Below, in pieces: positions 2,273-36,496 of a stretch of 60,120 nt of DNA. The translations under genes were made by a program, and so were the position numbers. The DNA is taken from positions 1 to 60,120 of IMG/VR virus record IMGVR_UViG_3300020044_003577; one strand, 5' to 3'. The notes under the pieces are model-generated. The model was not told the DNA's origin. It saw nothing but the letters and a program-made list of their open reading frames with translations, and did no database searches. The DNA comes from a virus. The stretch's first letter is position 1. Every line of letters starts with the position of its first letter.

Positions 2273-4543
2273 TTATTGTGGCATTGCTGCCGCTGGTCCT
2301 TGAGGTTGAGGAGTCTCCATACCATTAGCGGGTCTGGAAGCATCTCCATGCGAGTCTGATGTGATAAACTCTTTAGCCATAGCTAAGAGAGCTTTGATAT
2401 CAGGTTGTTTAGGTGGATCAACACCTTCTTTAGCTGCTTGTATGTAGATCTTACCCCATTCTTGATAGGATTTATCTAATGCAACCATTAATTGTTTTGT
2501 GTTATCTTGTAGAGCATTCTTAGCTTGAACATTAGTCAAATCAATAGTAGCTTGTCTTTGAGCCATATCTAACATCTTAACTTGTTCTTCTAATTGTCTA
2601 AGCTTCTCATTAGCTTTCATTTCGCTATCTCTTGACTCTTGAGCCTTTTGCTTAAAGTCAGGAGTCGTATAGTCAACAAGAAAATCTAATGGGTCTAAAT
2701 CCATAGCTTCAAGAGTCTTACACGCAATACGTACAGCTGCCTCTGGATTAACTGCGCCACCAGCACCTGCTTGCATTAATGCGGGTAAAAGCTGTTGACC
2801 AACCATAGTCATCTTTTTAACAACGTTACTATTACCATTCTCACCTACATCCGCATCAATATACATGAGCATATTGTTGGGTAATGTTGATGGATCAACT
2901 GACTTGAAAATATCGTTCTGATCAGTGTATTTAACTACTTTACCACGGAGCTTAGATCTCATGGTACGGTATACACCATCGCATAAACGTTTAAAGCCTG
3001 TTTCAGCAAACCTACGTGCCATAAACTGGATACGTACTTGTGCAGCAGACATAGCCTTCTGCATCTTTTCTTCACTGTTACCTGATACATATAGTGTATC
3101 ATTTAAACCTTGAGCAGCCTTACCCATACCAGTAGCTTGTTCTTTATGAACCTGTAACAACTCTAGGATTGGTACAGTACCAGGACTAATAGTGTCTGGT
3201 GTCATAGCAGATACAGCTGTCATGGGGTTACCATTAGTAGCAATAATCTGTTTAGGCTTCATATTCTGAAGAGCACTAAAGTCTACTACATTAGGGTCAG
3301 CTAATTTAGGTGCATAGTTAGTTAAGTATACATTCTCAACGAAGCCACGAAGAATAGCTGTGGTAGCTAATGTAGATGGACGAACCATATCTGCAACGCT
3401 AATACCAAAGAATTCGTGAGGTACTTCAAAGGGACAAAGAGTTGCCAAGGGAATCATATCACAATCTTCTTCAAGCAGGATTGTTGACCCTGCAATAATG
3501 AAGTGTTTTAATTCTGCAATACCATCTCCGTCTCTATCTACCCTTAACCAACACTCGATAACAGTTAATTGTCTGTTAGCTTCTGAAGGGAATAGCTCCC
3601 TTGAATTTCCCCCTAGCCAGTACTCTTCGCCGACTAAGCGCTTTCGAGCAGCCTGCTCTTCGGTGTACTTGGTGGCCCAATCATATGACCCATCACCAAT
3701 AGCGTCCCAATCAATGTTCTCTGCAATATCGGGGAAAAACTTTCTGACCTCAGAACGGGTCATATCAATCTGAATACCTACGAATGCTGCATCATCTAGT
3801 GAGTGAGCATCCCTTGTAATCCTAAAACATTCTGGATGTACGTTCTTAATAAGAACTCGTGTCTTATTTGTTTTACGTTTTAAACGAACATCCTTGTATA
3901 CTACCTGAAACTCTGAGTTACCATCAGGGTTTGTTGTTAATTCTTGTTCATAATTGAGGTTTCCTATGATTTCTACATCAGAATCTGACAAAATAAGGTC
4001 TAAATTCTCTTGAGAAATAGAGTCATATTCTTCAAAATTATAGTCAAAATCCTCAATAAACTCCCACCGAACAATACTATTCTTCCACAAAAGAGCTGAC
4101 TTAACCCATGTATTAAGGATTTCCCAACCAGGATTCTGTTTAAAGATAGCATAGTTAACTAAATCAGAAGCTACCTTTGCATAATGGTAGTCTGTGGGTG
4201 TTGGTCCAGCAGGAAGAAATCTGGCCAGCTTATTATTGTTAAACATAAGTTCAGCAATAATAGCGGTGTACCCTTCAACAGCCTCTACTGTGTCAGATGA
4301 AACAATCTGAGACACACCTTGAGGGGTCAAGTGGTACTGTGGCATCATACCATATTCGTATGTAGCCTTTTGTCTTTCACGAGCCAAGTCAGAACTGTTT
4401 AAGAAGTCACCAACAGAGTTCATTACACCCTGTTCGATCATAGCTAATAGTTCATTATCACCTACTGGTTCTTTATACCTGTCAGTAAGTCTGATAGGGG
4501 TAGTTGTATTATCTGCCATTGTTAACCTTTCTGGGTTATTCAA
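2273..4543 (-). CDS. portal protein
   Basis: 756 aa, lying between the terminase-side genes and scaffold/capsid. Size and position are typical of podovirus/N4-type portals. The call is by synteny and size, not by a diagnostic motif. Confidence 0.7.
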   Translation of the reverse strand: MNNPERLTMADNTTTPIRLTDRYKEPVGDNELLAMIEQGVMNSVGDFLNSSDLARERQKATYEYGMMPQYHLTPQGVSQIVSSDTVEAVEGYTAIIAELMFNNNKLARFLPAGPTPTDYHYAKVASDLVNYAIFKQNPGWEILNTWVKSALLWKNSIVRWEFIEDFDYNFEEYDSISQENLDLILSDSDVEIIGNLNYEQELTTNPDGNSEFQVVYKDVRLKRKTNKTRVLIKNVHPECFRITRDAHSLDDAAFVGIQIDMTRSEVRKFFPDIAENIDWDAIGDGSYDWATKYTEEQAARKRLVGEEYWLGGNSRELFPSEANRQLTVIECWLRVDRDGDGIAELKHFIIAGSTILLEEDCDMIPLATLCPFEVPHEFFGISVADMVRPSTLATTAILRGFVENVYLTNYAPKLADPNVVDFSALQNMKPKQIIATNGNPMTAVSAMTPDTISPGTVPILELLQVHKEQATGMGKAAQGLNDTLYVSGNSEEKMQKAMSAAQVRIQFMARRFAETGFKRLCDGVYRTMRSKLRGKVVKYTDQNDIFKSVDPSTLPNNMLMYIDADVGENGNSNVVKKMTMVGQQLLPALMQAGAGGAVNPEAAVRIACKTLEAMDLDPLDFLVDYTTPDFKQKAQESRDSEMKANEKLRQLEEQVKMLDMAQRQATIDLTNVQAKNALQDNTKQLMVALDKSYQEWGKIYIQAAKEGVDPPKQPDIKALLAMAKEFITSDSHGDASRPANGMETPQPQGPAAAMPQ

Positions 4544-5861: not shown

Positions 5862-7502
5862 CTATATCCATGTTGTTTCTAATTGTTGAAAGTTCCCCAT
5901 CTTTTGTGTAAAAGGAACATTAGTCGTTGTTAGTCTATCTCCGTGTGTCCTGATCACTTCCAGAGCAATAGCAAGAGCGATAACGGTATCATCATTGTGA
6001 CCAACAATAGCATTTGTCCTACCATTGTCATCAGCCACATAATTCATTAACTCCCCAATAATAGTTCTTGAAGGTATCCATATTTCCTCTTGTTCAATAG
6101 CACTCTTAAGAAATCCAATAATAGCTGGCTTAGAGGATGTTGTTGTTCTCCAACCCATCCTTAATCCCTCATCCTTGGATACATTAGCCATCTTAGTCTG
6201 ATAATACATATTAACATAGCCCATTTGAACTAGTCTATTTAATGTAGCAATACCCATACTATTAGATTCTACCGCCATTAAAGCGTTATTATAGTATCTT
6301 CCTAGATAAAACAATAGATCCCCAAACTTACTGGGATCAATCATATTATTTCTGTATGTAGCACATACCTCTTTATCTGCATTCATAACTACCGCAGCAG
6401 AATGATCTTTACCTACCCCTAAGGATACGTCCGCAGCTATAACAAAAGATTGATCAAAAGATGGATATTTAAATATCTCAATGGAACCCTGCCTAGCATC
6501 CTCCATCATCATACTCTCAAAGTTAAATTCTCTCTGAGCTAATATTGGTTGTGGTATTAAACTATTTAACTTTTCAATATTAAATACATTAGAACCTGAA
6601 ACAATAAAGGCTTCTTCAGGAGTCGCTGGATACTCTTGTTTAAACTTGTCTACCCCACTCTCAGCTATCTTGAGTCTCCTCCAGTATAGTTGATCGTTAT
6701 CTAGGTTAAACCTTGTAACTAATATCTCTTCCTCATCTGTTCTCTCAAACCCCTCAGGTGCCTTCCTACGATATTCAGACATAAGAAACCAAGGTACGAA
6801 TATAGGTATATATTCATTCTTACCAGCTACAGCATCTATCCATAGTCTATGAAATGAATTACCTACCCCATTGGCAGTACTCTCAAGAATAACCTCGGTA
6901 CCGTCTGCTTGGGAAATACCCTGAAATAATCCTGCTAAAATTTTTTCATCATGGAGCCAAAAGGATACTTCTGAAAGATGTGCGATTGTAGGCGTAATAC
7001 CCCTACCCGCCTCAGGAGAACCTGCTGTATAGAGTCTATAACCAGAGTCATTATGTTCAAACATAATCTCTTTTGCGTTAGATCTTTTTAGAGTAGGTGA
7101 GAATGACTCAGGCATATTAGAAATAATATTCCTGGACATAGTAAACAAGGCATCAGATGTTGCGGCATCATGAGCCATAACAACTGACTTGTTGTAAGCA
7201 TTAAAATAAGACTTCCAGAATACTCTACCAGTAGTATAGGTAGAAAGACCCATCTGTCGGGCTTTTAGGATAATAGCCCTGACTTTCCCAGTCTCCTTTA
7301 GTTGACCCTCAATCGCATCATTAACAATCTTTTGTGCATCGTTAAAGTCAAATGGTTGGAATCCTAGTCGGGAGTCTTTGGGTAGAATCTTGATTTGCTC
7401 TTTCGCAAATAATTCAAAGTTATTTTGGTATTCTGCGAGTTTTTCTCTGCGCTTTAGTTCCCTTAAAGCCTCTAGCTTGCGGGTGTTTGAGATAGTTGTC
7501 AT
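5862..7502 (-). CDS. terminase large subunit
   Basis: 546 aa. It has a Walker-A-like KARQMGLST and a C-terminal RNase-H-like nuclease with acidic motifs (AADVSLGVGKDHSAAVVM, GHNDDTVIALAIAL). It is the first gene after late promoter copy P1. Confidence 0.85.
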   Translation of the reverse strand: MTTISNTRKLEALRELKRREKLAEYQNNFELFAKEQIKILPKDSRLGFQPFDFNDAQKIVNDAIEGQLKETGKVRAIILKARQMGLSTYTTGRVFWKSYFNAYNKSVVMAHDAATSDALFTMSRNIISNMPESFSPTLKRSNAKEIMFEHNDSGYRLYTAGSPEAGRGITPTIAHLSEVSFWLHDEKILAGLFQGISQADGTEVILESTANGVGNSFHRLWIDAVAGKNEYIPIFVPWFLMSEYRRKAPEGFERTDEEEILVTRFNLDNDQLYWRRLKIAESGVDKFKQEYPATPEEAFIVSGSNVFNIEKLNSLIPQPILAQREFNFESMMMEDARQGSIEIFKYPSFDQSFVIAADVSLGVGKDHSAAVVMNADKEVCATYRNNMIDPSKFGDLLFYLGRYYNNALMAVESNSMGIATLNRLVQMGYVNMYYQTKMANVSKDEGLRMGWRTTTSSKPAIIGFLKSAIEQEEIWIPSRTIIGELMNYVADDNGRTNAIVGHNDDTVIALAIALEVIRTHGDRLTTTNVPFTQKMGNFQQLETTWI

Positions 7503-7517
7503 GGGGGTTTCGTTATA

Positions 7518-7541
7518 GTTTCTCTATTAGGGGACTACTCT
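7518..7541 (-). promoter_or_regulatory. phage-RNAP promoter motif copy P1 (late arm, upstream of TerL)
   Basis: The minus strand reads AGAGTAGTCCCCTAATAGAGAAAC, with core GTCCCCTAATAG at 7524-7535. It is about 20 nt upstream of the TerL ATG. The TAATAG(G/A) end resembles the T7 class III ..CTATAGGGAGA. Confidence 0.6.
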
Positions 7542-7590
7542 TTATACTTTTTTCTATAGCCCCTTAGTCTTTGTGTGTGAAAAAGAATCA

Positions 7591-7977
7591 TGGGTTTGTT
7601 TGTTCTCCCCTCCCTGTGTCGTGTGACCCCCCTGTCTCGTGGTGGTCGGTCGTGCTGCGGTGTCGGGTCGTTCTTGTCTCTCTTCCTCTGTCGGTGGTGC
7701 TGTGGCGCTGGTGCTGTCGACTTCCTTTGTTAGCGCTGTCTTGGAGTTCATTATGCGTTCTATCCTCTTGTTCGTTTGTCTTCGCCGTGGTTTTGGTTTG
7801 TCCTTCTCTACTGCCTGTGGTCACTTGCTTAATGCTTGGGGTCGTAGTGAGTGGTACAGTGACATGTCTACTGTTGACCTGTTCCTGTTGGCTACTCGTA
7901 AGTCTTAAGGGCTTTCTCGGTTGGCTCCTTGTGGGGCTTTCCGAGAGCGTCTTGCTCTGTTCTAAAAGGGGTTTGTT
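7591..7977 (+). other. adenine-depleted, strand-asymmetric non-coding leader
   Basis: By my count there are 2 A in 7591-7720, 7 A in 7591-7800 and 34 A in 7591-8040. The rest is T/G/C. Because stop codons need A (or T on the other strand), all six frames are open, which explains the four overlapping track ORFs here. Confidence 0.85.
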
Positions 7978-8193
7978 ATGTCTTCTTCTTTTGTTGTCTA
8001 CGCTGTGTCTGCCTCTGCTCCTCAGTGTGTTGTTGCTAGCTTTGATACTGTTGCTGAAGCTAATGCTGCTGCTTGGTTGGCTAACTCTATCGATAATACT
8101 TGTGACTATCGTGTTGATGAGGTCTTGCTTGGTGACTTGCTTTGTTCTGAGTGGAAGACCAAGGAGAGAATGTCAGGATACGAATTACTTTAA
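7978..8193 (+). CDS. first early protein (71 aa, net acidic), unknown function
   Basis: ATG preceded by AAAAGGGG. The composition is protein-like (MSSSFVVYAVSASAPQCVVASFDTVAEANAAAWLANSIDNTCDYRVDEVLLGDLL..) although its codons continue the A-poor bias. Confidence 0.55.
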   Translation: MSSSFVVYAVSASAPQCVVASFDTVAEANAAAWLANSIDNTCDYRVDEVLLGDLLCSEWKTKERMSGYELL

Positions 8194-8205
8194 TAAGATC
8201 TCTGC

Positions 8206-8247
8206 CTATTGGGTGTAACAACCCAATGGAGAGCGATCTTGCTCTGT
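8206..8247 (+). promoter_or_regulatory. early intergenic hairpin module 1
   Basis: Hairpin ATTGGGT/ACCCAAT (8208-8214 with 8221-8227), loop GTAACA. It is followed by hairpin AGAGC-GATCTT-GCTCT (8230-8245). The second hairpin has a near-copy, AGAGC-GTCTT-GCTCT, at 7944-7958. No U-tract follows. Confidence 0.35.
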
Positions 8248-8274
8248 GTCCGTACATAACTCAAGGAGATTAAC

Positions 8275-8472
8275 ATGTACACAACCCTTAACATCCTCAC
8301 TGCATTTCTGTGGTATAGTGCTGCTGCATGGTCTATCGATGCTATCTATGTCGAAGGTCAAGGTGGTTTGCTACCTATCTTCGTATTGCTAGGATCAGGT
8401 GTGCTTGCTGGTATGCAATCAATAGACTTGATTCGTGATCTTAAAGACAAACACAACCAAGGAGAACTGTAA
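8275..8472 (+). CDS. small membrane protein (65 aa)
   Basis: AAGGAG RBS; two hydrophobic segments (ILTAFLWYSAAAW, LLPIFVLLGSGVLAG). Confidence 0.7.
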   Translation: MYTTLNILTAFLWYSAAAWSIDAIYVEGQGGLLPIFVLLGSGVLAGMQSIDLIRDLKDKHNQGEL

Positions 8473-8579
8473 TGTATTTCATCTACCATAGACTCACTAA
8501 GGTATTGATCGCCAAGACTACATCTGTCAAGGTGCTCAATGAGTACGATCCACAATACTATGAAGTAGTAACATACTGA
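8472..8579 (+). CDS. possible 35-aa ORF
   Basis: TAATG stop/start overlap with the previous gene. Hand translation: MYFIYHRLTKVLIAKTTSVKVLNEYDPQYYEVVTY. Confidence 0.3.
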   Translation: MYFIYHRLTKVLIAKTTSVKVLNEYDPQYYEVVTY

Positions 8580-8586
8580 TAGTACA

Positions 8587-8633
8587 CTCTTCACGAGTAT
8601 AAGTGAGACCAGGGCATCAGGGGTAAGTACCTG
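8587..8633 (+). promoter_or_regulatory. early intergenic hairpin module 2
   Basis: CTCTTCAC-GAGTATAA-GTGAGACC (stem 8590-8594 with 8603-8607), then CAGG-GGTAAGTA-CCTG (8618-8633). It has the same layout as module 3, with compensatory stem changes. Confidence 0.4.
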
Positions 8634-8684
8634 CCTATGGGATGGTAACATACCACCTATTCACATTAACTCAAGGAGAACGTT

Positions 8685-8975
8685 ATGTCAGTAGCATCAG
8701 TCAAACCAGCCTTTGCAATCAAGGGCGATACAACAACAACAGCCTACACATCTACACCATCTATCCTGATGGCAGTCTTTGTAGATAAAGAGAACAAATA
8801 CTGGTATGCAGTAGATGACCAACAAACTATCCGTAAGATGTCCATCACAAGAGATGTTGAACATGCTCGTAGAGAGTATAAGATTGCTCGTAACCTTGTA
8901 GGCAAGAAAGTATACTTCGGTGTCACACAAGGATGGGATGGTAATGTATGGTTTAATGAAGTAATCGAAGCATAA
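8685..8975 (+). CDS. hypothetical early protein (96 aa)
   Basis: AAGGAG RBS, clean ORF. Confidence 0.75.
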   Translation: MSVASVKPAFAIKGDTTTTAYTSTPSILMAVFVDKENKYWYAVDDQQTIRKMSITRDVEHARREYKIARNLVGKKVYFGVTQGWDGNVWFNEVIEA

Positions 8976-8984
8976 CTAGCAATG

Positions 8985-9031
8985 CTCTTCTCGGGTAGAT
9001 AACTGAGAGACCTCTTGGGGTAAGTACCAAG
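8985..9031 (+). promoter_or_regulatory. early intergenic hairpin module 3
   Basis: CTCTTCTC-GGGTAGATAACT-GAGAGACC (stem 8988-8992 with 9005-9009), then CTTGG-GGTAAGTA-CCAAG (9014-9031). The loop is identical to module 2 but the stems differ and remain complementary. Confidence 0.4.
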
Positions 9032-9064
9032 GCCACATAACACACTCACCACAAGGGGATAAAC

Positions 9065-9313
9065 ATGCGATACATATTGTTAACACCAGTAACACCAGAT
9101 GACTTCTGCCTAGACACCTTTGAAGAAGTCCAAGAGTCAGCACAAGAGTTTGGTTGTGATATCTTGTTATCAACAAAGATAACAGGAGGAACAGTAGCAT
9201 TCTTCGTAGCTAAAACAAAGGAAGCACTTGAAGGAATGTGCTCTCAGGTAGACTTAGATGGTACCGTATTAGGGTACTCAGAGACCTATGACCAACTAGT
9301 GAGGGTATTATGA
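9065..9313 (+). CDS. hypothetical early protein (82 aa)
   Basis: AAGGGG RBS, clean ORF. Confidence 0.7.
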   Translation: MRYILLTPVTPDDFCLDTFEEVQESAQEFGCDILLSTKITGGTVAFFVAKTKEALEGMCSQVDLDGTVLGYSETYDQLVRVL

Positions 9314-9501
9314 TATACGATACCTATATGACGTTACCATTAGAACAGTTCCTAGAAGAACTTAAACAAGAAAGGGATAGGAGGGTATACCAGAGGACAA
9401 AATCTTTGCAAGAAGCACTACAGGGATATACCCAGACATATACCCAACAGACAACTGAGGGAAGTCATGCAGAGAACGTAGCGAGAGGAGGTTTTTTGTA
9501 G
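9310..9501 (+). CDS. hypothetical early protein (63 aa)
   Basis: ATGA start/stop overlap with the previous gene. Confidence 0.6.
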   Translation: MIYDTYMTLPLEQFLEELKQERDRRVYQRTKSLQEALQGYTQTYTQQTTEGSHAENVARGGFL

Positions 9502-9566
9502 AAAGTATTTTGTGTGTGCTGAAAGTGTAACAAAGTGAATCAAAATGAACATAAAGGAAAGTTCAA

Positions 9567-9878
9567 ATGAGCAAACAACAACTCATAAAAAGTCTCCTAA
9601 AAATAGCAAAAGAATACTTCAACGAACGTAACAAAGCGACTGATGCCTATCATTTTGGTATATGCTATCTATTAAATTATGACGAAGCTCATTCTTTCTC
9701 AGAAAAACTAGACAAACTAAACTTAAACACGGAATCCTCAGGAATAGTCTCAGGGTATCTCAAGAAAACCTACAGATACGCTTTCACAAAAGAGACCGCA
9801 AGAGAATACTTCAAAGACCGTGCCTATTTCTGCCTCGTATTTGCTGAATATCTAAAACAAAAGAAAGGAAAACTCTAA
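9567..9878 (+). CDS. hypothetical early protein (103 aa)
   Basis: AAGGAAAG RBS. The 9-mer GTGTAACAA (9525-9533), shared with the loop region of hairpin 1, lies 34 nt upstream. Confidence 0.7.
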   Translation: MSKQQLIKSLLKIAKEYFNERNKATDAYHFGICYLLNYDEAHSFSEKLDKLNLNTESSGIVSGYLKKTYRYAFTKETAREYFKDRAYFCLVFAEYLKQKKGKL

Positions 9879-11718: not shown

Positions 11719-11744
11719 CTCTAGTTGTCCCCTAATAGGGAATT
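11719..11744 (+). promoter_or_regulatory. phage-RNAP promoter motif copy P2
   Basis: CTCTAGTTGTCCCCTAATAGGGAATT, core at 11727-11738. It fires into the AT-rich tract and then antisense through 11845..12225 toward the SSB gene. Confidence 0.55.
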
Positions 11745-26424: not shown

Positions 26425-28626
26425 ATGAATCCAGTACAATATCTATCTGAAAGAGTAGCCAAAGTCGTGGTCAACTCAGATAAGATTTATAATGAGGGTG
26501 CTCGACTACTAGCACATCATCCAACATGGGAATATGACTTAGAAAGGTTTGTAAATGAATCGTGGGACACACTTCTCCGCTACTGTATTCGCAACAAGAA
26601 TGCAACTCATAGCGCATCAGTTAAACTTACTTTTGCAAGTGACCTTATCGGAAAACGAATCGCAAGAGCTATTGGAACTGATGAAAGCAACATCAAATCA
26701 ACTCTCGCTCTTGGAGACATTCTACTCGAAACATTTCTCCAAGATAGCTTAATAGATATCTTCAGAGAGTATGATGGATTTAAGGCTCCATATATGGTAC
26801 GTATTGTCAATATGCCTGACAATATTAAGCCTACATTAATAGGTACTTCATTTGAACCTTTGTTACCTATAGCTGGTCTATATAGTAACCTTACTAAAGA
26901 GCCATTCATTAAGGGATGGACTAACAGTAAACTGTTTCATGAGTACTTAGATAAACCTTTTGTACGTGCATTAGAAACATTACGCCAACAACCTTGGGTA
27001 TTAAATCAGGGTGTGTTAGAAGGTATGAGGAATTATAAGCCAACTGAAATACTAGAGTTGGTTGATGATGATGGTGTGCTATATAACTACAACATTCATT
27101 ATGAAAATTTAGAACTACCAAAGAAACTTAAGCACCTAGATGGTACTTCTTTCCTTGGTAAGAAAGACCCTAAGCTACAACGTATGCTTAGTAAGTTCTT
27201 TGAATACAATCAAGTAGTAAAGAAAGCTGAATTGATTGGTGATAGATCATTCTATCAAGAAGTATCCTGTGACTATCGTGGTCGAGTATACTATGCTGAA
27301 TCCTTCTTAGAGTTTCAGGGTAGTGACTTAGCTCGTAGTCTCTTTTTATTTCAGAATAAAAAAGAGATGGATGATCGTGGTTACTTCTGGCTTAAGGTTC
27401 ATACAGCAGGATGCTATAATGAATCCTTTAATGTTAATAAATTACCACATTATTTTACTACTGACTATAAGACCTATTTAAAAGGAGAAGGTTTAGATAC
27501 TATTTCTCTTGATAAGATGACCCTTGAAGACAGAGCTATATGGGTAGATAATAACCTAGCTAAGATAGCTAGTATTGCTAATCATTATTATATAGATACC
27601 TCTGCTGAAAAGCCATATAGCTTACTAGCTTGTTGTCTTGAAATTAAAGCATATACACAGGCTAGATCTAAAAGTAAGAAGCATATGTCTGGTCTTCCTA
27701 TCCCTATCGATGGTAGTAATAATGGATGGCAACATCTGGCAGCTATGTCTAGAGATACCCAGGCAGCTACATTAGTGTCATTAGTACCTACACCTATACA
27801 GAAAGACTTCTATGTAGCTGTGGCTAAAGAACTAATTAACATCATGCCTGACTACTTTAAGCAAAAGAATATGCCTATGAAAGATATCCGTAAAGGTATT
27901 GCTAAACGAGGCTCCATGACTCGTGCGTACTCAGCAGGTAAACAGCGTATTGCTAAAAATATGTATGATGACTGCCATGTAGAAGGATTCACTGTTAAGT
28001 ATAATATCACAGAAAAAGAATGTGGAGATCTAGCAGGTAACTTAATTAAAGCTATCAATGCAGTATGCTCTGGTCCATTAAAGACAACTAAGTTTTTACA
28101 AAAAATTGCTGAACATGAACTTAACTCTGGTCGTAATCAGCTATCATGGCATACACCCTCAGGATTTCCTGTAGTATATAAAGCATTTCTCCAACATGAA
28201 CGTAAACATAGAGGTACTATCAGGGGTATACCTGGAAACCCCAAAGGAAGGATTAGACATGTTATTAAAGTGGATGTACTCAACAAAGACACAGGTGAAA
28301 AAGTTCCTTGTAGGCGCTCCTTTGCCTCTGGTATCAGTCCTAACGTTGTCCACAGTTACGATGCTGCTCATATGGCTAACGTTATCTCTATCTTTAATGG
28401 AAATTTTGGTGCTGTCCATGATAGTTTCAGTACTCATGCCAGCGAGGTAGACTTCTTACAGGAAGTAACTAAGATGACCTTTGTAGCACAGTATGATATA
28501 GACAATTTCTTTAGTAATCTTATGAATACATTAATGCTTAACAAAGATACATTCACCTATCCTCCACCAGAAGAAGGTACATTAGATTTAAAACAAGTCT
28601 ATGAATCTAAATACTTTTTCTGCTAG
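26425..28626 (+). CDS. T7-like single-subunit DNA-dependent RNA polymerase (733 aa)
   Basis: CDYRGRVYY (T/DxxGR); motif A PIDGSNNGWQHLAAM; motif B AKRGSMTRAYSAG; SPNVVHSYDAAHM; motif C AVHDSFSTH. Confidence 0.9.
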   Translation: MNPVQYLSERVAKVVVNSDKIYNEGARLLAHHPTWEYDLERFVNESWDTLLRYCIRNKNATHSASVKLTFASDLIGKRIARAIGTDESNIKSTLALGDILLETFLQDSLIDIFREYDGFKAPYMVRIVNMPDNIKPTLIGTSFEPLLPIAGLYSNLTKEPFIKGWTNSKLFHEYLDKPFVRALETLRQQPWVLNQGVLEGMRNYKPTEILELVDDDGVLYNYNIHYENLELPKKLKHLDGTSFLGKKDPKLQRMLSKFFEYNQVVKKAELIGDRSFYQEVSCDYRGRVYYAESFLEFQGSDLARSLFLFQNKKEMDDRGYFWLKVHTAGCYNESFNVNKLPHYFTTDYKTYLKGEGLDTISLDKMTLEDRAIWVDNNLAKIASIANHYYIDTSAEKPYSLLACCLEIKAYTQARSKSKKHMSGLPIPIDGSNNGWQHLAAMSRDTQAATLVSLVPTPIQKDFYVAVAKELINIMPDYFKQKNMPMKDIRKGIAKRGSMTRAYSAGKQRIAKNMYDDCHVEGFTVKYNITEKECGDLAGNLIKAINAVCSGPLKTTKFLQKIAEHELNSGRNQLSWHTPSGFPVVYKAFLQHERKHRGTIRGIPGNPKGRIRHVIKVDVLNKDTGEKVPCRRSFASGISPNVVHSYDAAHMANVISIFNGNFGAVHDSFSTHASEVDFLQEVTKMTFVAQYDIDNFFSNLMNTLMLNKDTFTYPPPEEGTLDLKQVYESKYFFC

Positions 28627-30542: not shown

Positions 30543-30808
30543 ACTTATATAAATTTTATACAGAAACATGTGTACCATGTAGACAGATGAATGAACGTAT
30601 TAAGGATGTAGACTTTATGCTGGACTATGGTGTAGTATTTAATAGTATTAATGCACATATTTATCCAGATAAAACTAAGCTGTATGACGTCAAGACAGTA
30701 CCTACGTTTGTATTGACTGATGATAACGATAACTTAATCAGAAAGATTAATGGTGCAATTTCATTACAACAACTAGATACTTTTATTACAGGAACAGCCG
30801 TCCCCTAA
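30539..30808 (+). CDS. thioredoxin/glutaredoxin-fold redoxin (NrdC/NrdH-like)
   Basis: 89 aa with a CVPC active site near the N-terminus and ..VPTFV.. downstream. TTG start overlapping the RNR stop. Confidence 0.65.
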   Translation: MNLYKFYTETCVPCRQMNERIKDVDFMLDYGVVFNSINAHIYPDKTKLYDVKTVPTFVLTDDNDNLIRKINGAISLQQLDTFITGTAVP

Positions 30809-30817
30809 TAGGGAACA
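30792..30817 (+). promoter_or_regulatory. phage-RNAP promoter motif copy P6 (tRNA operon)
   Basis: GAACAGCCGTCCCCTAATAGGGAACA, core at 30800-30811. It spans the redoxin stop codon (TAA 30806-30808) and ends 8 nt before tRNA 1. Confidence 0.6.
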
Positions 30818-30818
30818 A

Positions 30819-30893
30819 TGCGGAGTAGCTCAATGGTAGAGCAGGGGACTCATAATCCCTTGGTCACTGGTTCGATCCCAGTTTCCGCAACCA
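30819..30893 (+). tRNA. tRNA with CAT anticodon (Met, fMet or Ile2; undecided), CCA encoded
   Basis: Hand-folded cloverleaf. Acceptor TGCGGAG/TTCCGCA; D arm GCTC-AATGGTA-GAGC; anticodon arm GGGGA-CTCATAA-TCCCT; T arm ACTGG-TTCGATC-CCAGT; discriminator A plus CCA. Confidence 0.85.
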
Positions 30894-30904
30894 TTCAAGA
30901 ATAT

Positions 30905-30979
30905 AGCGGGATAGCTCAGTAGGAGAGCGCTGGACTCATAATCCAGAGGTCGGTGGTGCGAATCCACTTTCCGCAACCA
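30905..30979 (+). tRNA. second tRNA with CAT anticodon, A1xA72 mismatch, CCA encoded
   Basis: Acceptor AGCGGGA/TTCCGCA (positions 1-72 unpaired); D arm GCTC-AGTAGGA-GAGC; anticodon arm CTGGA-CTCATAA-TCCAG; T arm GGTGG-TGCGAAT-CCACT. Confidence 0.8.
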
Positions 30980-30987
30980 ATTAATTC

Positions 30988-31040
30988 CCCACAAGATCGT
31001 ATCTGTGGGCCGACACCCTCTTTATGGGGGTGTTTCTTTT
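30988..31040 (+). terminator. double hairpin; the second has a T-run (intrinsic terminator candidate after the tRNA pair)
   Basis: Hairpin CCCACA..TGTGGG (30988-31009), then ACACCC..GGGTGT (31013-31033) followed by TTTCTTTT. Confidence 0.5.
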
Positions 31041-31049
31041 AACACCAAG

Positions 31050-31212
31050 ACGCATGGAGATTGTCCTCTGCTTAGGGCTTATAAGCGTTCGAACGGGCAA
31101 GTCAGTCTCCAGCCGTGTTGGTGTCGAGGTTCTAGTCAAACACCTGTCTGCAACAGGAGCGTAAGCAGTAAAACGCCCCAAATCAGATGACAACTGGTTC
31201 ACCAACAACTAA
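31050..31212 (+). ncRNA. structured non-coding unit 1 (unknown class)
   Basis: No credible ORF and GC-rich. It has a 5' box ACGCATGG and stem P1 GGAGATTG/CAGTCTCC (31056-31063 with 31103-31110). A 15-nt box CCAGCCGTGTTGGTG is shared with unit 2. Stem P2 pairs 31116-31123 with 31200-31207, and the unit ends in the box CACCAACAACTAA. Confidence 0.4.
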
Positions 31213-31213
31213 C

Positions 31214-31347
31214 ACGCATGGGAACTGCCAGCAATCGTTAGCCATATGGGGCTTTCAATCGTTGGACAAACAGTTCCCAGCCGTGTTGGTGGTTCCATTG
31301 CAGACTGCGGTGGTAAATTGACTGGGCCAGTAGCCACCAACAACTAA
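31214..31347 (+). ncRNA. structured non-coding unit 2 (paralogue of unit 1)
   Basis: It has the same boxes as unit 1. P1 is GGGAACTG/CAGTTCCC (31220-31227 with 31271-31278), with two compensatory pair changes relative to unit 1. P2 pairs 31284-31292 with 31334-31342. It ends 7 nt before tRNA-Arg. Confidence 0.4.
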
Positions 31348-31354
31348 ACAACAA

Positions 31355-31429
31355 GGGTCATTAGTTCAATGGATAGAACAGTGATCTTCTAAGTCACGAG
31401 TGCATGTTCGATTCATGCATGACCCACCA
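31355..31429 (+). tRNA. tRNA-Arg (anticodon TCT), CCA encoded
   Basis: Acceptor GGGTCAT/ATGACCC; D arm GTTC-AATGGATA-GAAC; anticodon arm GTGAT-CTTCTAA-GTCAC; T arm GCATG-TTCGATT-CATGC; discriminator A plus CCA. Confidence 0.85.
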
Positions 31430-32881: not shown

Positions 32882-35800
32882 TTATGCGTGAGTCATTTGA
32901 GCAATACCATATTTTATTACATTATTGTTTGTACGTAATGCTTTAAAACCTTGATCTACTTTTCCTTCAAATTCATTTGCAAAAATCTTAAACATATTTT
33001 CTGCACCACCTAATTGCTGGTAAGATTCAATCATATTAAATAAGTCTCTAAATTGTGAACCAGATACTGTTAGATTAGGTATACCATCAATCCAACCTGC
33101 TTTCTTAGCTTTATCTAATAGTTGATTGTTTTTTGCTTTAAGATCTTCCCAACTTTTAATTGGATCTTTTGATCTATTTTTAATATAGGTTTCATACTCT
33201 GGACTATGATTAGTCTTCTTATTTAAGTCATCAAAGAAAGCCCCTAATGCAGGAAAGTCTCCTTTAGTACCTATACCTACATCTGATGCACCAGCTGTTC
33301 TTCTAAACACTTCATCTTTAGCTTTGATATAAGCATTCTCTAATTGTTTAGCAAACTTCTTAATTTCAGGTATTGCCTGAGGAATTGCTACGTTATTATA
33401 AGTATTACGATAAAGATGCATTGTATCCATTGTTGTGATCAATGAATCGTGAACAGTTGCTACAGGCAAAGGTATCTTTCTATCTGCATTTAAATCTAGC
33501 ATCATTAACTTAAGTAGGTCAGCATCAGTAGATTGAATAGGCATAACACCTAATAATCTAGATAACGCAGAACCAAGAGCATTCTCAAATAAGTCAAACT
33601 TATTTTTAGCTTTATTCCAGAATGATTGGTTGGGTTTAGCAGCAGAAGCATTGTACATTCTTCTTGCTGCCTGTACTTCTACAATACCTTCAGGAGCTAA
33701 ATAGGTATTTGTTTGAACACCTTTGTCAACAGTAGTATAAGCTTGTCCTTCAGGAGTCATACCAGTACCTTCTACATCTCTGAATTGATCTGGGATAAAA
33801 CCTAAGTCAACAGATGAGTATACTGTGTCATCTCCTGTAATACCTTTTAATATAGGTATCGAGTTAATGACAGCAAACATACGACCAACCTTCTTTAGCA
33901 TACGAGTAAAGCTTGGATCAATCACTTTTCTTAAAGTTGTATCTAGTGCATTAGCTAAATCTTGAGCTGCTTCAGTTGAACTATTATAGTTAGGTAAAAC
34001 ATTTTCAGCAAATATAGCATTGTATTCTTGTGAATCTTCTAAAAAGGATAACACATGATCAAAGAACATACCAGAATCTTTACCATAAGAATTCTGCATT
34101 AAAGGTGCTTTAAATAAATCTGATGCTAACTTTTCATTTAATGCTTCACTAAAGAAAGTTTTCCAACCATCAAGTCTAGCCTTATTATCAGGAATTAAAT
34201 TAGATAAATTATCACCAATAATATTAAGAGCATAACCACGCATGTCAGATAGATTAGGGTTATAAGAACCTAATCTAATTGCAACAGTAGGTTTACTTGC
34301 ATACAATGATTGAATAAAGATACCATTTTGGTTTCCATCATCATAGTTTAAAGCACTAAGTTTAATATGACGGTTAGCCATTGCAGGATCCATTGCTGCC
34401 ATACCTAATTGAGAAAAGTCATCCCAAAGATTTTGATATGCTTGTGCTTCACCTCTAGGCATATTAGCAAGTAAGCTAACAATGTTTGATCCTTCAGATA
34501 CTTTTCCTGCTAACCAGTCATTATATTCTTTTCCTAACATACCTAGATGTTTACCAATATCAGAATTATACATTCTAATTAATTGTATTTCAGGTTGCTT
34601 TTTAATATCTTTATTTTGTACAGAAGGATCACCACTAAAGCTATAGTAATTAACTACAGCACATTCCATAAGACCAAGAGCAGTTCTTTCAGATGGTGTT
34701 AATGCCATTAAAGCTTTGTTACGAGCTTTACCTGACTTGCTAAATATACCCATTGCTTTGTCTTGTAAGTTTTTAATTTTTACAGGATCAAAGAAATGAT
34801 TAGCGTAAGTTAAACCTTGGATACCAAAGTTAAGCATCTCACGAGTAGCATTTTTAGACGCTAGTATGTCAGTACCAGCATTATTTCTGAAGAAACGTTG
34901 ATTAGCCATTGAATGAGAATAGCCTGTGTACACTACACCTTTAATTTTTTGAGCATTTTCTAAATCATATTCCATATAGTGAATAGCATTTGTTATAACC
35001 GATTTAGCGTGTTGATTTTGTAGCTCAACAAACTTAGCTCTAGATACTGGGTTATTAATATCATAATCACTAGGTGGTTTAACTCTTTGTTTAAGTTTAT
35101 TATAGTCTGATAAAGATACTTTATGACGTTTAGCAAAAGGGCTAGTAGAATAAAAACCTTCTGGACCATCTACAATATTTCTTTTGATATCTTCTAATTG
35201 CATACTAGTAGATAACATAGTCTTTGGTAAAAAGATTTCACCAATAGAACCAAACATATCTTTAACTGTTTCAGCTACAGTTTGTTTAGCACCTTCCATA
35301 GGTAAAGAATTCTTTGTACCTTGTGAACCAGGCTTAATAAAATTAGACCCAGCTATTTGTGGTACTTTAGAAGGTAAAGATCTACGTTCGTCACCTGCTA
35401 GTGCTGCTGACATATAACTTAATTCAGCTGCTAAGTCTTTTAATTCTTTAGAAGAACCATACACCCAATTATTATTTTTATCTAGCATAGGTACATGACG
35501 TTGTTGAGCAATTTCTGCTTCAACTTTAGCTTCTGCTAATTGCCTTACTGCTTCAGCAGGAATTTCCATACCTAAATTAGATAACGCATTGTGCATTGAA
35601 GCAATAGTAGAGTTAACTAAGTTTGTCTTTGGTTGGGCATCCATAAGGTTACCATTATGGTCTCTTACTTCAGCAACGTCATCAAATGAATCTGTCTTAA
35701 TACCATTTTTAAATAACCGTGATTGCTCAGTAGCTCGTGCATGTGCAATACCTAACACTGTAGATATTGGTCTGGCATATTCTAAAGGAATATTATTAGT

Positions 35801-36496
35801 ATTTAAAATTTCTAAACCAGCAGGAACACCATAGTATCCTTCAGCAGTACTTCGAATAACAGAGTCAGGACTAAACAAATCAGCTGCAGTAGCATCTGAC
35901 ACCATACCTAAGGCAGGTGCAGCAGAGTCAGCCCAACGTTTGATAAGCTCATCATCCATATTCATGAACTGAGATGTACCCGCTGGCATACTTTCTGCTT
36001 GAGATACTTCTGCTCTTGCTCTAAGAATAGCTCTACCTGCTTCTACTGGATCTTCAGTCATCAAGGCAGGAGCCATATTAGGTCTGGTAGATAAGTCAGC
36101 TTCTTGTTGTTTACTATAATCTTCCATTGTTACAGGTTGAGTTATATACTCACCAGTCTCAGGATTAAACTCAGGCATACCTTGTTCATCTTCTACTTGA
36201 CTAAGTCTTTCTCGACCAGCAAGAGATGATTGAGTAGCCTGAGCCAAATCTTCAGGAGTTGATTGTGCAGATAACCTATCTATATTAACTGGACCAGCAA
36301 TACCCCCAGCGGGTAGGGGTACTACAGGAATAGGCTGTGGATTATATACATCCATAGCTTGTTTAACTGCTTCTGTCCCAGGTATTTCTACCTGAGGTGC
36401 AGCACCAGTACCAAAGGCTTGGTTAGAGAATGCTTGCAATTGCTCTGCACTTAAAGGTGCTCTGCCTTGCGTATTTACATTTACATTAATTGCCAT
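32882..36496 (-). CDS. diverged T7/N4-type single-subunit RNA polymerase homologue in the virion module (candidate virion RNAP, 1204 aa)
   Basis: Motifs occur in canonical order: SMANQRFFRNNAGTDIL (R534); motif A LNYDDGNQNGIFIQ (D719/D720); motif B FKAPLMQNSYGK (K796, Y804-G805); GVMPIQSTDADLL; motif C ATVHDSLI (D1017). It is the last gene of the late operon, after the giant internal proteins. Confidence 0.65.
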   Translation of the reverse strand: MAINVNVNTQGRAPLSAEQLQAFSNQAFGTGAAPQVEIPGTEAVKQAMDVYNPQPIPVVPLPAGGIAGPVNIDRLSAQSTPEDLAQATQSSLAGRERLSQVEDEQGMPEFNPETGEYITQPVTMEDYSKQQEADLSTRPNMAPALMTEDPVEAGRAILRARAEVSQAESMPAGTSQFMNMDDELIKRWADSAAPALGMVSDATAADLFSPDSVIRSTAEGYYGVPAGLEILNTNNIPLEYARPISTVLGIAHARATEQSRLFKNGIKTDSFDDVAEVRDHNGNLMDAQPKTNLVNSTIASMHNALSNLGMEIPAEAVRQLAEAKVEAEIAQQRHVPMLDKNNNWVYGSSKELKDLAAELSYMSAALAGDERRSLPSKVPQIAGSNFIKPGSQGTKNSLPMEGAKQTVAETVKDMFGSIGEIFLPKTMLSTSMQLEDIKRNIVDGPEGFYSTSPFAKRHKVSLSDYNKLKQRVKPPSDYDINNPVSRAKFVELQNQHAKSVITNAIHYMEYDLENAQKIKGVVYTGYSHSMANQRFFRNNAGTDILASKNATREMLNFGIQGLTYANHFFDPVKIKNLQDKAMGIFSKSGKARNKALMALTPSERTALGLMECAVVNYYSFSGDPSVQNKDIKKQPEIQLIRMYNSDIGKHLGMLGKEYNDWLAGKVSEGSNIVSLLANMPRGEAQAYQNLWDDFSQLGMAAMDPAMANRHIKLSALNYDDGNQNGIFIQSLYASKPTVAIRLGSYNPNLSDMRGYALNIIGDNLSNLIPDNKARLDGWKTFFSEALNEKLASDLFKAPLMQNSYGKDSGMFFDHVLSFLEDSQEYNAIFAENVLPNYNSSTEAAQDLANALDTTLRKVIDPSFTRMLKKVGRMFAVINSIPILKGITGDDTVYSSVDLGFIPDQFRDVEGTGMTPEGQAYTTVDKGVQTNTYLAPEGIVEVQAARRMYNASAAKPNQSFWNKAKNKFDLFENALGSALSRLLGVMPIQSTDADLLKLMMLDLNADRKIPLPVATVHDSLITTMDTMHLYRNTYNNVAIPQAIPEIKKFAKQLENAYIKAKDEVFRRTAGASDVGIGTKGDFPALGAFFDDLNKKTNHSPEYETYIKNRSKDPIKSWEDLKAKNNQLLDKAKKAGWIDGIPNLTVSGSQFRDLFNMIESYQQLGGAENMFKIFANEFEGKVDQGFKALRTNNNVIKYGIAQMTHA

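Follow-up and report, generated by a model that had tools for sequence, protein, structure and literature searches.

Organization of the early region and its leader

The rightward early region lies in the left part of the window, by which we mean the whole 60,120-nt stretch of viral DNA analyzed here. It carries structured modules that are confined to the gaps between early genes, always stand in the sense orientation and precede early start codons by 25–45 nt, at the far left of the rightward arm. Two kinds can be distinguished, type A (7907–7958 and 8195–8245) and type B (8587–8635 and 8985–9032). The sequence-only reading of this DNA had singled out three hairpins, ATTGGGT-GTAACA-ACCCAAT (8208–8227), CAGG-GGTAAGTA-CCTG (8618–8633) and CTTGG-GGTAAGTA-CCAAG (9014–9031), each followed by a CAT(N)AAC box. 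All three hairpins are present, and so are the boxes, namely CATAAC at 8255–8260, CATTAAC at 8664–8670 and CATAAC at 9036–9041, all on the plus strand. The treatment of the three hairpins as one group had to be revised: the first is the top of a larger hairpin (8195–8240), which is of one kind with the module at 7907–7958 that had not been listed.

The terminase-proximal end of the early region contains a 23-nt leader box, TCTTTGTGTGTGAAAAAGAATCA (7568–7590, plus strand). No other non-coding block of the clade is as well conserved. With up to 4 mismatches allowed, the box is present in 60 of 81 sequences (two copies in one of them and a single copy in the other 59), and it is a candidate early promoter or genome-end signal. 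No sigma-70-like site scoring at least 9/12 is found in 7500–7750. The leader that follows (7593–7752) is poor in A, with 5 A in 160 nt, and includes 93 nt without any A (7627–7719, plus strand). Nowhere else in the window is one of the four bases missing over such a length, and the second-longest A-free run measures 47 nt. Relatives share this A-poor feature. A leader hairpin rich in G·U pairs spans 7690–7721 on the plus strand, shortly before the first early gene (ATG at 7753), and the outer stem of this hairpin is compensated in the relatives L009 and L010, where GTCGGT...GTCGAC is replaced by GTCAAC...GTTGAC. Neither a type A nor a type B module is present in the leader of this first gene.

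A related second copy of the leader box (TTTGTGTGTG...AAAGTGAATCAA) is located at 9509–9543 on the plus strand, and the motif of this second type is found in 22 of 81 sequences. The copy contains the 9-mer GTGTAACAA at 9525–9533. Its recurrence there had earlier been raised as a caveat, because a 9-mer without an obvious stem might point to a linear motif rather than a hairpin; the 9-mer is indeed present, and the caveat is resolved by its being part of the leader-box copy. The GGGTA and GGGGTACCCC motifs also recur in the leaders of distant relatives. The T7-type promoters of the phage have the consensus AGTTGTCCCCTAATAG followed by GGA. A leftward copy of their core, GTCCCCTAATAG, precedes the terminase gene (7524–7535, minus strand), and since the first rightward copy is at 11727, the early block is devoid of that motif.

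Type A modules

Type A is an irregular hairpin of about 17–20 pairs with an internal loop. Copy 1 (7907–7953, plus strand) has 18 pairs, and its base overlaps the TAA stop codon at 7906–7908. Copy 2 (8195–8240, plus strand) starts on the tandem stop TAATAA at 8191–8196 and contains the 8208–8227 hairpin. In the alignment of copy 1 (A3, 26 sequences), 98.5% of the cells are paired, 4 pairs are changed on both sides and 5 G·U pairs are conserved; for copy 2 (A4, 17 sequences), 96.5% of the cells are paired and 7 pairs are changed on both sides.

Type A has an alternative fold, in which the 3′ arm pairs with GCTCT just downstream to give a small hairpin, S. In copy 1, S is AGAGC-GTCTT-GCTCT (7944–7958, plus strand), with compensated variants in the type A2 set; in copy 2, it is AGAGC-GATCTT-GCTCT (8230–8245, plus strand), and pairing is kept in the variants of relatives. 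Variants of S that retain pairing are GAACG/CGTTC, GAGTG/CACTC and ACAGC/GCTGT. The 3′ arm of the long hairpin and S share AGAG, so both cannot form together. Compensatory changes maintain both of these exclusive foldings.

The modules are also in register with stop codons. In each of the 43 type A modules, the 5′ base of the hairpin has TAA or TGA at an invariant position. For 40 of them, this triplet terminates an upstream reading frame that is open for 48–294 codons, while the other 3 have it as the second of the two stops in TAATAA. The C-termini encoded upstream are not alike between modules. The CATAAC box, which in copy 2 lies 8 nt upstream of the ribosome-binding site, accompanies type A ahead of different genes.

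A GTAA-containing loop had been put forward as the feature common to the hairpins. The GTAACA loop of 8208–8227 is not kept in relatives, where TTCTG, TTATG, AGCAAT and GTGTAG are also found, and GTAA as a signature common to types A and B was rejected because type A loops vary freely. A simple model in which type A would hide or expose the ribosome-binding site downstream was rejected as well (unpaired probability 0.45 versus 0.49, higher in only 24 of 42 cases). On inspection, we discarded a mini-ORF that starts with TTG after the type A GGAGAG, since copy 2 has it and copy 1 lacks it.

Type B modules

Type B consists of two short hairpins with stems of 4–6 bp, separated by ACC plus one base. 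Hairpin 1 of copy 1 (CTTCAC...GTGAGA, 8589–8608) and hairpin 1 of copy 2 (TTCTC...GAGAG, 8988–9009) form the shared upstream hairpin with an A-T to T-A swap that the letters alone had suggested. They are joined to the hairpins 2 at 8618–8633 and 9014–9031, respectively, and all four lie on the plus strand. Building a covariance model from relatives had been recommended, and the resulting model detects the whole modules with E values of 8.8e-8 (copy 1, 8587–8635) and 3e-17 (copy 2, 8985–9032). Across the 60 kb and on both strands, it finds only these two early copies. An extra hairpin with a 3-nt loop, GATGGTA-ACA-TACCACC (8641–8657, plus strand), is present only here and in the relative L007.

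In alignment A8, 99.6% of type B cells are paired, 5 of the 10 pairs are changed on both sides and one U·G pair is invariant. The stem of hairpin 1 is CTC/GAG or CAC/GTG in all 55 instances. Hairpin 2 presents a near-invariant loop, GGTA(A/G/T)GTA (type B loop sequence GGUAAGUA), on four stems: CTTGG/CCAAG, CAGG/CCTG, TCTAG/CTAGA and TCCAG/CTGGA. The hairpin 2 pattern matches 69 stretches in IMG/VR, and at newly retrieved loci 56 of 57 matches are complete modules. Alignment A8 and covariance model R1 were used in place of the MAFFT alignment A1, which misplaced the variants with an AGGGCAT insertion.

Loop-loop pairing between CUUAC of hairpin 1 and GUAAG of hairpin 2 was rejected on inspection, since it fits the commonest variant and not the others. 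The likeness of the type B TGCTCTT to BoxA was set aside as well, because the motif is not kept across variants. In some distant relatives, type B hairpin 2 is followed by 3–5 U, which are absent in the window and its close relatives.

Conservation and covariation of the modules

The comparison set comprises about 60 related phage contigs, each roughly 60 kb. Among them, no DNA of the early region is better conserved than the gaps between its genes: module segments are 85–92% identical across phages, whereas the flanking small genes are less than 72% identical or unalignable. Gene content between the modules varies among relatives, and the same module and leader (e.g. CATAACTCAAGGAGATTAAYATG) stands before unrelated genes in different relatives. 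No close DNA relative was found among isolated phages; the nearest isolate is Roseobacter phage CRP-7, whose likeness is at the protein level only.

Pairing is kept in 96–99.6% of alignment cells, with compensatory changes at many pairs, which bears out the earlier view of the hairpins as functional and covarying. None of 500 shuffles reached the observed percentage of paired cells or the covariation score in any of alignments A3, A4 and A8. The sense strand folds better than the antisense strand in 72 of 72 module instances, with mean folding energies (sense versus antisense) of −26.3 versus −12.4, −22.1 versus −16.4 and −11.9 versus −9.1 kcal/mol. The invariant G·U pairs of the structures would be C·A mismatches on the template strand.

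A 5-bp stem with a GTAA-containing loop is not unusual as a generic pattern, with at least 25 examples in the window by a loose scan, and GGTAAGTACC with at most one mismatch is not enriched (5 found versus 2.7 expected). Folding z-scores are strong for two regions only, −3.97 for 8190–8274 and −3.57 for 7900–7978, and are −1.2 and −1.6 for the two GGTAAGTA regions. As judged from sequence, the significance of the hairpins rests on the comparison with relatives, that is, on conservation and compensatory changes.

Searches for known signals in this region were largely negative. The sole match in an Rfam scan of 7400–9700 is a chance one (E 2.1), and no family matches the modules. There are no intrinsic terminators (hairpin plus U-tract) at the modules and no U-tract follows any hairpin in the window, in agreement with what had been stated from the letters. 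Sigma-70 sites scoring at least 9/12 are absent in and near the modules, and a promoter scan of the region gave 11 sites versus 14.4 expected. Family searches with the early proteins gave no informative match and identified no candidate RNA-binding protein. Contigs encoding early proteins were checked for transcript-like ends, and nothing is on record.

Two single-subunit RNA polymerases

The phage encodes a T7-like RNA polymerase of 733 aa in its replication module (26425–28626, plus strand; PF00940, 4e-56; phrog_414, 5e-95), 19 kb downstream of the early start. A second protein, of 1204 aa, is encoded by the last gene of the late operon (32882–36496, minus strand), after proteins of 886 and 1439 aa. 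It had been described as vRNAP-like, and its predicted structure agrees with this. The AlphaFold2 model has a pLDDT of 93.4, and Foldseek matches it to mitochondrial RNA polymerase (E 7e-12) and T7 RNA polymerase (E 5e-10), over about 700–790 columns, and to N4-like virion RNA polymerase (E 4e-11). A shallow 6-sequence alignment had given a model with a pLDDT of 54 and meaningless fold matches.

Three motifs are found in the correct order, NYDDGNQNGIFIQS, KxPLMQNxYGK and VHDS, which a visual comparison with T7 RNA polymerase putatively assigns to motifs A, B and C. D720, Y804 and D1017 are invariant over 40 sequences that are 14–49% identical to the window protein. The right-hand fold of the model, together with these motifs, places the 1204-aa protein among the single-subunit RNA polymerases.

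Sequence methods miss this kinship. Profile searches of Pfam and PHROGs and sequence searches of the PDB were all blank for the 1204-aa protein, hhalign did not detect a relationship with the 733-aa polymerase, tblastn against phages returned nothing, and there is no detectable sequence similarity to N4 gp50. The family forms 141 clusters at 50% identity, and the gene lies within the ejection-protein operon, a late structural operon. The clade that carries it is a widespread group of uncultivated podophages related to Roseobacter phage CRP-7. This second, very divergent RNA polymerase probably starts early transcription somewhere.

Discussion

Conservation, covariation, sense-strand specificity, the stop-codon register and the restriction to early-gene gaps are established for the modules. 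We lean towards the view that they are structured cis-acting RNA elements of a polycistronic early transcript, which act folded in the RNA and not as extruded DNA. We then propose a model for their role. A single polycistronic early mRNA, which we infer because internal promoters are lacking, would start upstream of the first early gene, near the leader box at 7568–7590. By analogy with the intercistronic RNase III sites of the T7 early transcript, the modules may be the places at which the long RNA undergoes processing. The upstream message would then end, and the downstream message begin, with a protective hairpin. The type B loop, GGUA(A/G/U)GUA in the RNA, could be where an RNA-binding factor of the phage or the host docks in a sequence-specific manner, and the loop-bound factor might adjust how stable the messages of the conserved downstream early genes are or how well they are translated.

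The T7 early RNase III sites are R0.3, R0.5, R1, R1.1 and R1.3, and their size and internal-loop layout were reportedly described by Dunn and Studier in 1983. Like them, the modules are related hairpins between early genes, in a phage that also carries a T7-like polymerase. T7-type sites are irregular hairpins of roughly two helical turns with an internal loop, and type A would resemble them in its size, its internal loop and its position directly after the upstream stop codon. The modules and the T7 sites do not resemble each other in sequence, and type A differs in having a small hairpin that competes with the long one. The 4–6 bp stems of type B are far too short for RNase III, which speaks against the favoured reading. 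The same is true of the second polymerase, which is of the single-subunit family to which the N4 virion enzyme also belongs and is encoded at the gene position equivalent to that in N4. Moreover, S and type B hairpin 2 are purely Watson-Crick and could therefore form equally well on the template DNA strand, and the tandem early hairpin promoters of LUZ7 make tandem type B modules compatible with promoters (PMC9163698).

The hairpins had been read earlier as N4-type DNA promoters, with RNA processing sites named as an alternative. If so, the injected 1204-aa polymerase would read gene-proximal hairpins (S and type B hairpin 2) extruded from supercoiled DNA, with one transcript start for each downstream early gene, as in N4. 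Stems of N4-type promoters are 5–7 bp long. In N4 and LUZ7, the promoters are template-strand hairpins with a 3-nt loop and conservation from −17 to +1, and transcription starts at a G 13–14 nt from the loop centre (PMC4496689, PMC9163698). The hairpins here are also short, precede the first early genes and combine conserved loop bases with freely covarying stems; in N4, too, the loop stays constant while the stems vary (PMC4496689). The polymerase fold is confident, and its gene closes the late operon after two giant proteins, at the position held by gp50 in N4. The modules stand leftmost in the rightward arm, 25–45 nt before start codons, in an early block without a GTCCCCTAATAG promoter or a good sigma-70 site; the stems of S and type B hairpin 2 are 4–6 bp and Watson-Crick only, and tandem early promoters occur in LUZ7 (PMC9163698).

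The details of the hairpins nevertheless depart from those promoters. Loops here are 4–12 nt and the sense strand is favoured, unlike in N4 and LUZ7; loops of 5–8 nt, as against 3 nt, would make extrusion costly, and the purine-rich version of the loop is on the non-template strand. The 5–13 nt after the stems vary (CTTTC, ATTTC, GCCAC, GATAG) and have no preferred G start, and the distance to the next conserved box, CAT(N)AAC, is 5–13 nt and not fixed. The proximal hairpins are rigidly joined (0–4 nt) to upstream hairpins for which only the sense strand gives a good fold. A promoter would have no use for the type A stop-codon register, and the first early gene has no such hairpin. The polymerase is about 1200 aa, compared with about 3500 aa in N4, and has no detectable similarity to gp50; its packaging into virions is only putative. 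Loop size, G·U pairs, strand bias, variable downstream bases and the module-less first gene thus tell against N4-type hairpin promoters, which we consider doubtful, and RNA processing sites are the better fit. It is also unlikely that the modules, or S and type B hairpin 2 in particular, are signals for an undescribed family of single-subunit polymerases of ~1150–1500 aa.

The modules might instead be RNA signals that act on the transcribing polymerase through pausing, attenuation or anti-termination, so that a host or phage polymerase would be modified to read ~20 kb rightward to the 733-aa polymerase gene. Like put of phage HK022 (two hairpins) and nut of lambda (one hairpin and a linear box), in which the loop sequence matters for recognition, they are compact cis-acting RNA structures near the start of an early operon. 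Such a role would suit sense-strand-specific two-hairpin units of about 50–60 nt near the start of a long rightward arm, type A with its two exclusive foldings, both kept by compensatory changes, and a polymerase gene 19 kb beyond the early start. However, at least 4 copies lie within 1.5 kb, one per gene gap and not one per operon, there are no U-tract terminators to attenuate or bypass, the boxA-like GCTCTT is not conserved across variants and Rfam has no match. We regard this explanation as quite unlikely.

A DNA-level role without transcription signals fits less well. The promoter-stem-loop cassettes (PeSL) of T4 are proposed to be exchanged by recombination at homology patches, and the modules could likewise be boundaries of mobile gene cassettes, where homology would allow small early genes to be swapped, with little regulatory function. 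Here too, conserved gap units flank small variable early genes, and an identical module and leader precedes unrelated genes in relatives. A sigma-70 early promoter belongs to the PeSL, whereas none is detectable here, and the covariation of the present structures goes further than that of a plain terminator-like stem. Patches for recombination depend on identical sequence and not on pairing, while selection on structure is indicated by compensatory changes, by G·U pairs that are conserved and by a loop retained on four stems. Cassette boundaries are a very unlikely primary function, and a role in exchange could be secondary to a regulatory one. Operators in double-stranded DNA, at which a dimeric regulator would bind GGTA..TACC-like inverted repeats, are suggested by the nearly palindromic GGTAAGTACC and by the GGGTA and GGGGTACCCC motifs of distant leaders. 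But the flanking stems change to unrelated sequences and yet stay complementary, and in duplex DNA neither the strand asymmetry nor the G·U pairs would have any meaning, which makes operators an extremely improbable explanation.

If the modules are RNA elements, as we favour, two motif families new to Rfam organize early expression in an abundant uncultivated phage clade, and type A, by coupling a stop codon to a two-state fold, would be an example of structure linked to translation. The clade carries two single-subunit RNA polymerases, one from a family that escapes sequence methods. Should the hairpins signal to that family, hairpin-dependent early transcription would have evolved a second time, independently and outside the N4-like phages, with loops of 5–8 nt. 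Candidate early-transcription signals are now defined, namely the leader box at 7568–7590, its copy at 9509–9543 and the modules. The modules and the leader box are also useful for recognizing where the early region starts, and how it is oriented, in metagenomic contigs of this group.

Two types of hairpin module lie in the early gene gaps

The hairpins and boxes that a sequence-only reading had listed upstream of the early genes are all found at their reported positions. The hairpins are real, but they had been grouped as three of one kind, and they belong to two module types with four copies in the window. Type A modules (7907-7958 and 8195-8245) consist of a long irregular hairpin followed by an overlapping small hairpin, S (AGAGC-loop-GCTCT); the previously reported ATTGGGT-GTAACA-ACCCAAT hairpin is present, but is merely the top of the long hairpin of type A copy 2. 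Type B modules (8587-8635 and 8985-9032) consist of hairpin 1 (CTTC(A/T)C-loop-G(T/A)GAGA), a linker of ACC plus one base, and hairpin 2 with the loop GGTAAGTA. A short stem with a GTAA loop is, as a generic pattern, frequent by chance. Only type A, not type B, is thermodynamically unusual, with folding z-scores of -3.6 and -4.0 for the type A copies and -1.2 and -1.6 for the type B copies.

Past type B copy 1 an extra hairpin with a 3-nt loop is inserted (GATGGTA-ACA-TACCACC, 8641-8657). It is seen only in the window and in one related locus, L007, where its 7-bp stem is perfect; the mismatch in the window would correspond to a G·T pair on the minus strand.

The modules are conserved and covary among related phages

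IMG/VR contains more than 200 related stretches, and the relatives were compared using 80 loci fetched around the terminase gene (terminase identity 80-98%). The comparison shows that the module structures are conserved, covary, belong to the sense strand and occur only in the early gene gaps. In distant relatives they are the best-conserved early-region DNA (85-92% identity), whereas the small genes between them fall below 72% identity or cannot be aligned. The alignment of type A copy 1 (26 distinct sequences) has 98.5% of its cells paired, with four pairs changed on both sides and five conserved G·U pairs; that of type A copy 2 (17 sequences) has 96.5% paired and seven pairs changed on both sides; and that of type B (29 sequences) has 99.6% paired, five of ten pairs changed on both sides and one invariant U·G pair. 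For each alignment, none of 500 shuffles equalled the observed percentage of pairing or the covariation score, and pairing dropped to 15-64% when the partner was slid by 1-3 columns. The covariation first suggested from the window alone is thus borne out by compensatory changes in all three alignments.

The S stem occurs as AGAGC/GCTCT, GAACG/CGTTC, GAGTG/CACTC and ACAGC/GCTGT, with pairing retained. Because S and the 3' arm of the long hairpin have AGAG in common, the two hairpins of type A exclude each other, and both of these alternative foldings are maintained. In type B, hairpin 1 carries either CTC/GAG or CAC/GTG without exception in 55 instances, with a loop of 5-12 nt, and hairpin 2 presents a GGTA(A/G/T)GTA loop on four different stems (CTTGG/CCAAG, CAGG/CCTG, TCTAG/CTAGA and TCCAG/CTGGA). 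Scanning IMG/VR for CTTGGGGTANGTACCAAG gave 69 stretches, and 56 of the 57 matches at newly fetched loci were complete type B modules, while a type B covariance model run on both strands of the window recovered the two early copies only. Every instance has the same orientation as the early genes and precedes a ribosome-binding site by 25-45 nt.

One sub-clade (contigs of 34-77 kb) carries two complete type B modules head to tail (L086 1420-1498, L092 2824-2903, L110 ~360-440 and L126 1542-1621), the first with a TCTAG/CTAGA or TCCAG/CTGGA stem. By inspection only, analogous hairpins are seen in the early gene gaps of Roseobacter phage CRP-7 (~330-352 and ~1131-1150 of the fetched locus), CACACC-TGTAATG-GGTGTG and CCTCC-TGTAATG-GGAGG, with an identical 7-nt loop on different stems, followed by a conserved leader TATATCTCG(N)GAAAGGA. 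The CRP-7 locus also contains AACCTTGG/AACCTTGAT repeats at 1436-1626.

The phage genome encodes a predicted second RNA polymerase

At ~60 kb, the window spans all or nearly all of a phage genome. Its structural genes are on the minus strand (terminase 5862-7502, portal 2273-4543, tail fibres 47-57 kb), and its early and replication genes occupy the plus strand from ~7.7 to 32 kb, encoding DNA polymerase, primase-helicase, ribonucleotide reductase and a 733-aa T7-like RNA polymerase (26425-28626, plus strand). None of the isolated phages searched at the DNA level is close to the window. The nearest isolate by protein is CRP-7 (57% identity for terminase and 33% for RNA polymerase), which is reported to have founded a new group of podoviruses (PMC6918029). 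In the late arm, a 372-aa protein (45070-46188, minus strand) matches ferrochelatase and 2OG-Fe(II) oxygenase PHROG families and may be an auxiliary metabolic gene.

The last gene of the late operon (32882-36496, minus strand) encodes a 1204-aa protein without a match in Pfam, PHROG or PDB sequences or, by tblastn, in CRP-7. An exhaustive profile search gathered a family of 141 clusters (50% identity), nearly all of 1150-1500 aa. From a 45-sequence alignment, the C-terminal 800 aa were modelled as a confident fold (pLDDT 93.4, pTM 0.91) that matches yeast and human mitochondrial and T7 RNA polymerases (E 7e-12 to 5e-10 over 700-790 columns); among viral models, T7-like polymerases and N4-like virion polymerase segments match about equally. 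The motifs NYDDGNQNGIFIQS, KxPLMQNxYGK and VHDS occur in the correct order, and D720, Y804 and D1017 are invariant across the family; we take these motifs to be A, B and C, assigned by eye against the T7 motifs rather than by residue-level superposition. The model, motif order and invariant residues bear out the earlier premise of a vRNAP-like gene: by its modelled structure the protein has a single-subunit RNA polymerase fold, and it founds a polymerase family that sequence profiles fail to recognise.

In N4, the genes for the virion polymerase and two ejection proteins adjoin one another in order. Here, two giant proteins of 886 aa (40834-43494) and 1439 aa (36497-40816), both on the minus strand, precede the polymerase gene in a similar arrangement; the 1204-aa protein is a candidate virion protein. 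The N4 virion polymerase is expelled together with two other ejection proteins (PMC13434306).

The modules are better read as RNA elements than as hairpin promoters

The early promoters of N4 and LUZ7 form hairpins on the template strand, with a loop of 3 nt and sequence conservation from -17 to +1; the transcript begins with a G that lies 13-14 nt from the centre of the loop (PMC4496689, PMC9163698). Such promoters had been proposed here by the sequence-only reading. Although its polymerase premise holds in the model, they are not the best reading of the modules, because these depart from the N4/LUZ7 promoters in six ways. The module loops are 4-12 nt long. The conserved G·U pairs would turn into C·A mismatches if the template strand folded, and the sense strand is the more stable in 72 of 72 instances (-26.3 versus -12.4 kcal/mol for type A copy 1). 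In contrast to the conserved -17 to +1 region, the bases right after the module stems vary, and the next conserved element, a CAT(N)AAC box, lies at a distance of 5-13 nt. Two hairpins are strand-neutral, S and hairpin 2 of type B, and each adjoins sense-specific pairing at a constant spacing, which argues that each module is a single unit working at a single level. Each of the 43 type A modules begins with TAA or TGA; in 40 this triplet closes a long open frame upstream, and in three it forms the second half of a TAATAA double stop. The C-termini encoded upstream differ between modules, and where TAA and TGA replace each other the stop is retained and so is the base pair, as A·U or G·U. Such a link to translation makes sense for an RNA but not for a promoter. 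Lastly, neither a type A nor a type B module precedes the first early gene, whose ATG is at 7753. Less probably, the modules may be true hairpin promoters or have co-transcriptional roles such as pausing or anti-termination.

We infer that the modules act in messenger RNA. The mechanism we prefer, tentatively, is that they could govern the processing and stability of messages from neighbouring cistrons, much as RNase III sites do in the early region of T7. The size and internal loop of type A would suit processing, with the upstream message ending exactly at its stop codon, and the type B loop might offer a docking site to a specific factor that binds RNA. We also tested whether type A could unmask the ribosome-binding site downstream of it, and this model failed. 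No Rfam family matches the modules, and neither these elements nor the second polymerase turned up in a literature search. Signals of this general kind, structured RNAs or hairpins between the early genes of phages, are known; these particular motifs, their stop-codon register and their association with a new polymerase family are new.

Leader boxes are probably the better early promoter candidates

The T7-type promoter motif AGTTGTCCCCTAATAG followed by GGA occurs seven times in the window (five exact copies, two with one mismatch). The copy at 7524-7535 points leftward, ahead of the terminase gene, and no copy points rightward before 11727; the early block at 7.6-11.7 kb, which holds the modules, is therefore without a T7-type promoter.

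Upstream of the first early gene lies a 23-nt leader box, TCTTTGTGTGTGAAAAAGAATCA (7568-7590), present in 60 of 81 sequences and followed first by a nearly A-free stretch and next by a hairpin that has many G·U pairs and shows compensatory change. The sense strand of 7593-7752 has five A in 160 nt, including a 93-nt run without A (7627-7719), and consequently lacks ATG, stop codons and the majority of palindromic restriction sites that contain A/T. This A-poor leader is conserved in relatives, and it may enter the cell ahead of the rest of the genome. A is also scarce in the first two genes (7753-8193). About 2 kb downstream, a related box (9509-9543) marks the start of the next tightly packed gene block. 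It accounts for a caveat of the sequence-only reading, that recurrence of GTGTAACAA might point to a linear motif: GTGTAACAA is indeed present, and falls within this box. The two boxes are probably better early promoter candidates than the modules, for either polymerase; they are candidates for early promoters or genome-end signals.

In distant relatives (L014, L018, L022, L029 and others) the spacer that separates the terminase gene from the leader box contains, ~20-80 nt ahead of the box, GGGGTACCCC palindromes and a unit like GGGG(A/T)A(A)NGTCT in two to four direct repeats; in the window's clade this spacer is shorter and holds a leftward GTCCCCTAATAG promoter instead. In distant relatives (L029, L031, L040, L051 and others), palindromes like TGAACGTTC recur, along with T-rich spacers, between the second box and the next gene. 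Another GTCCCCTAATAG promoter directly precedes a tRNA cluster (30800-31429) of two tRNA-Met (CAT) and one tRNA-Arg (TCT), the latter also present in CRP-7.
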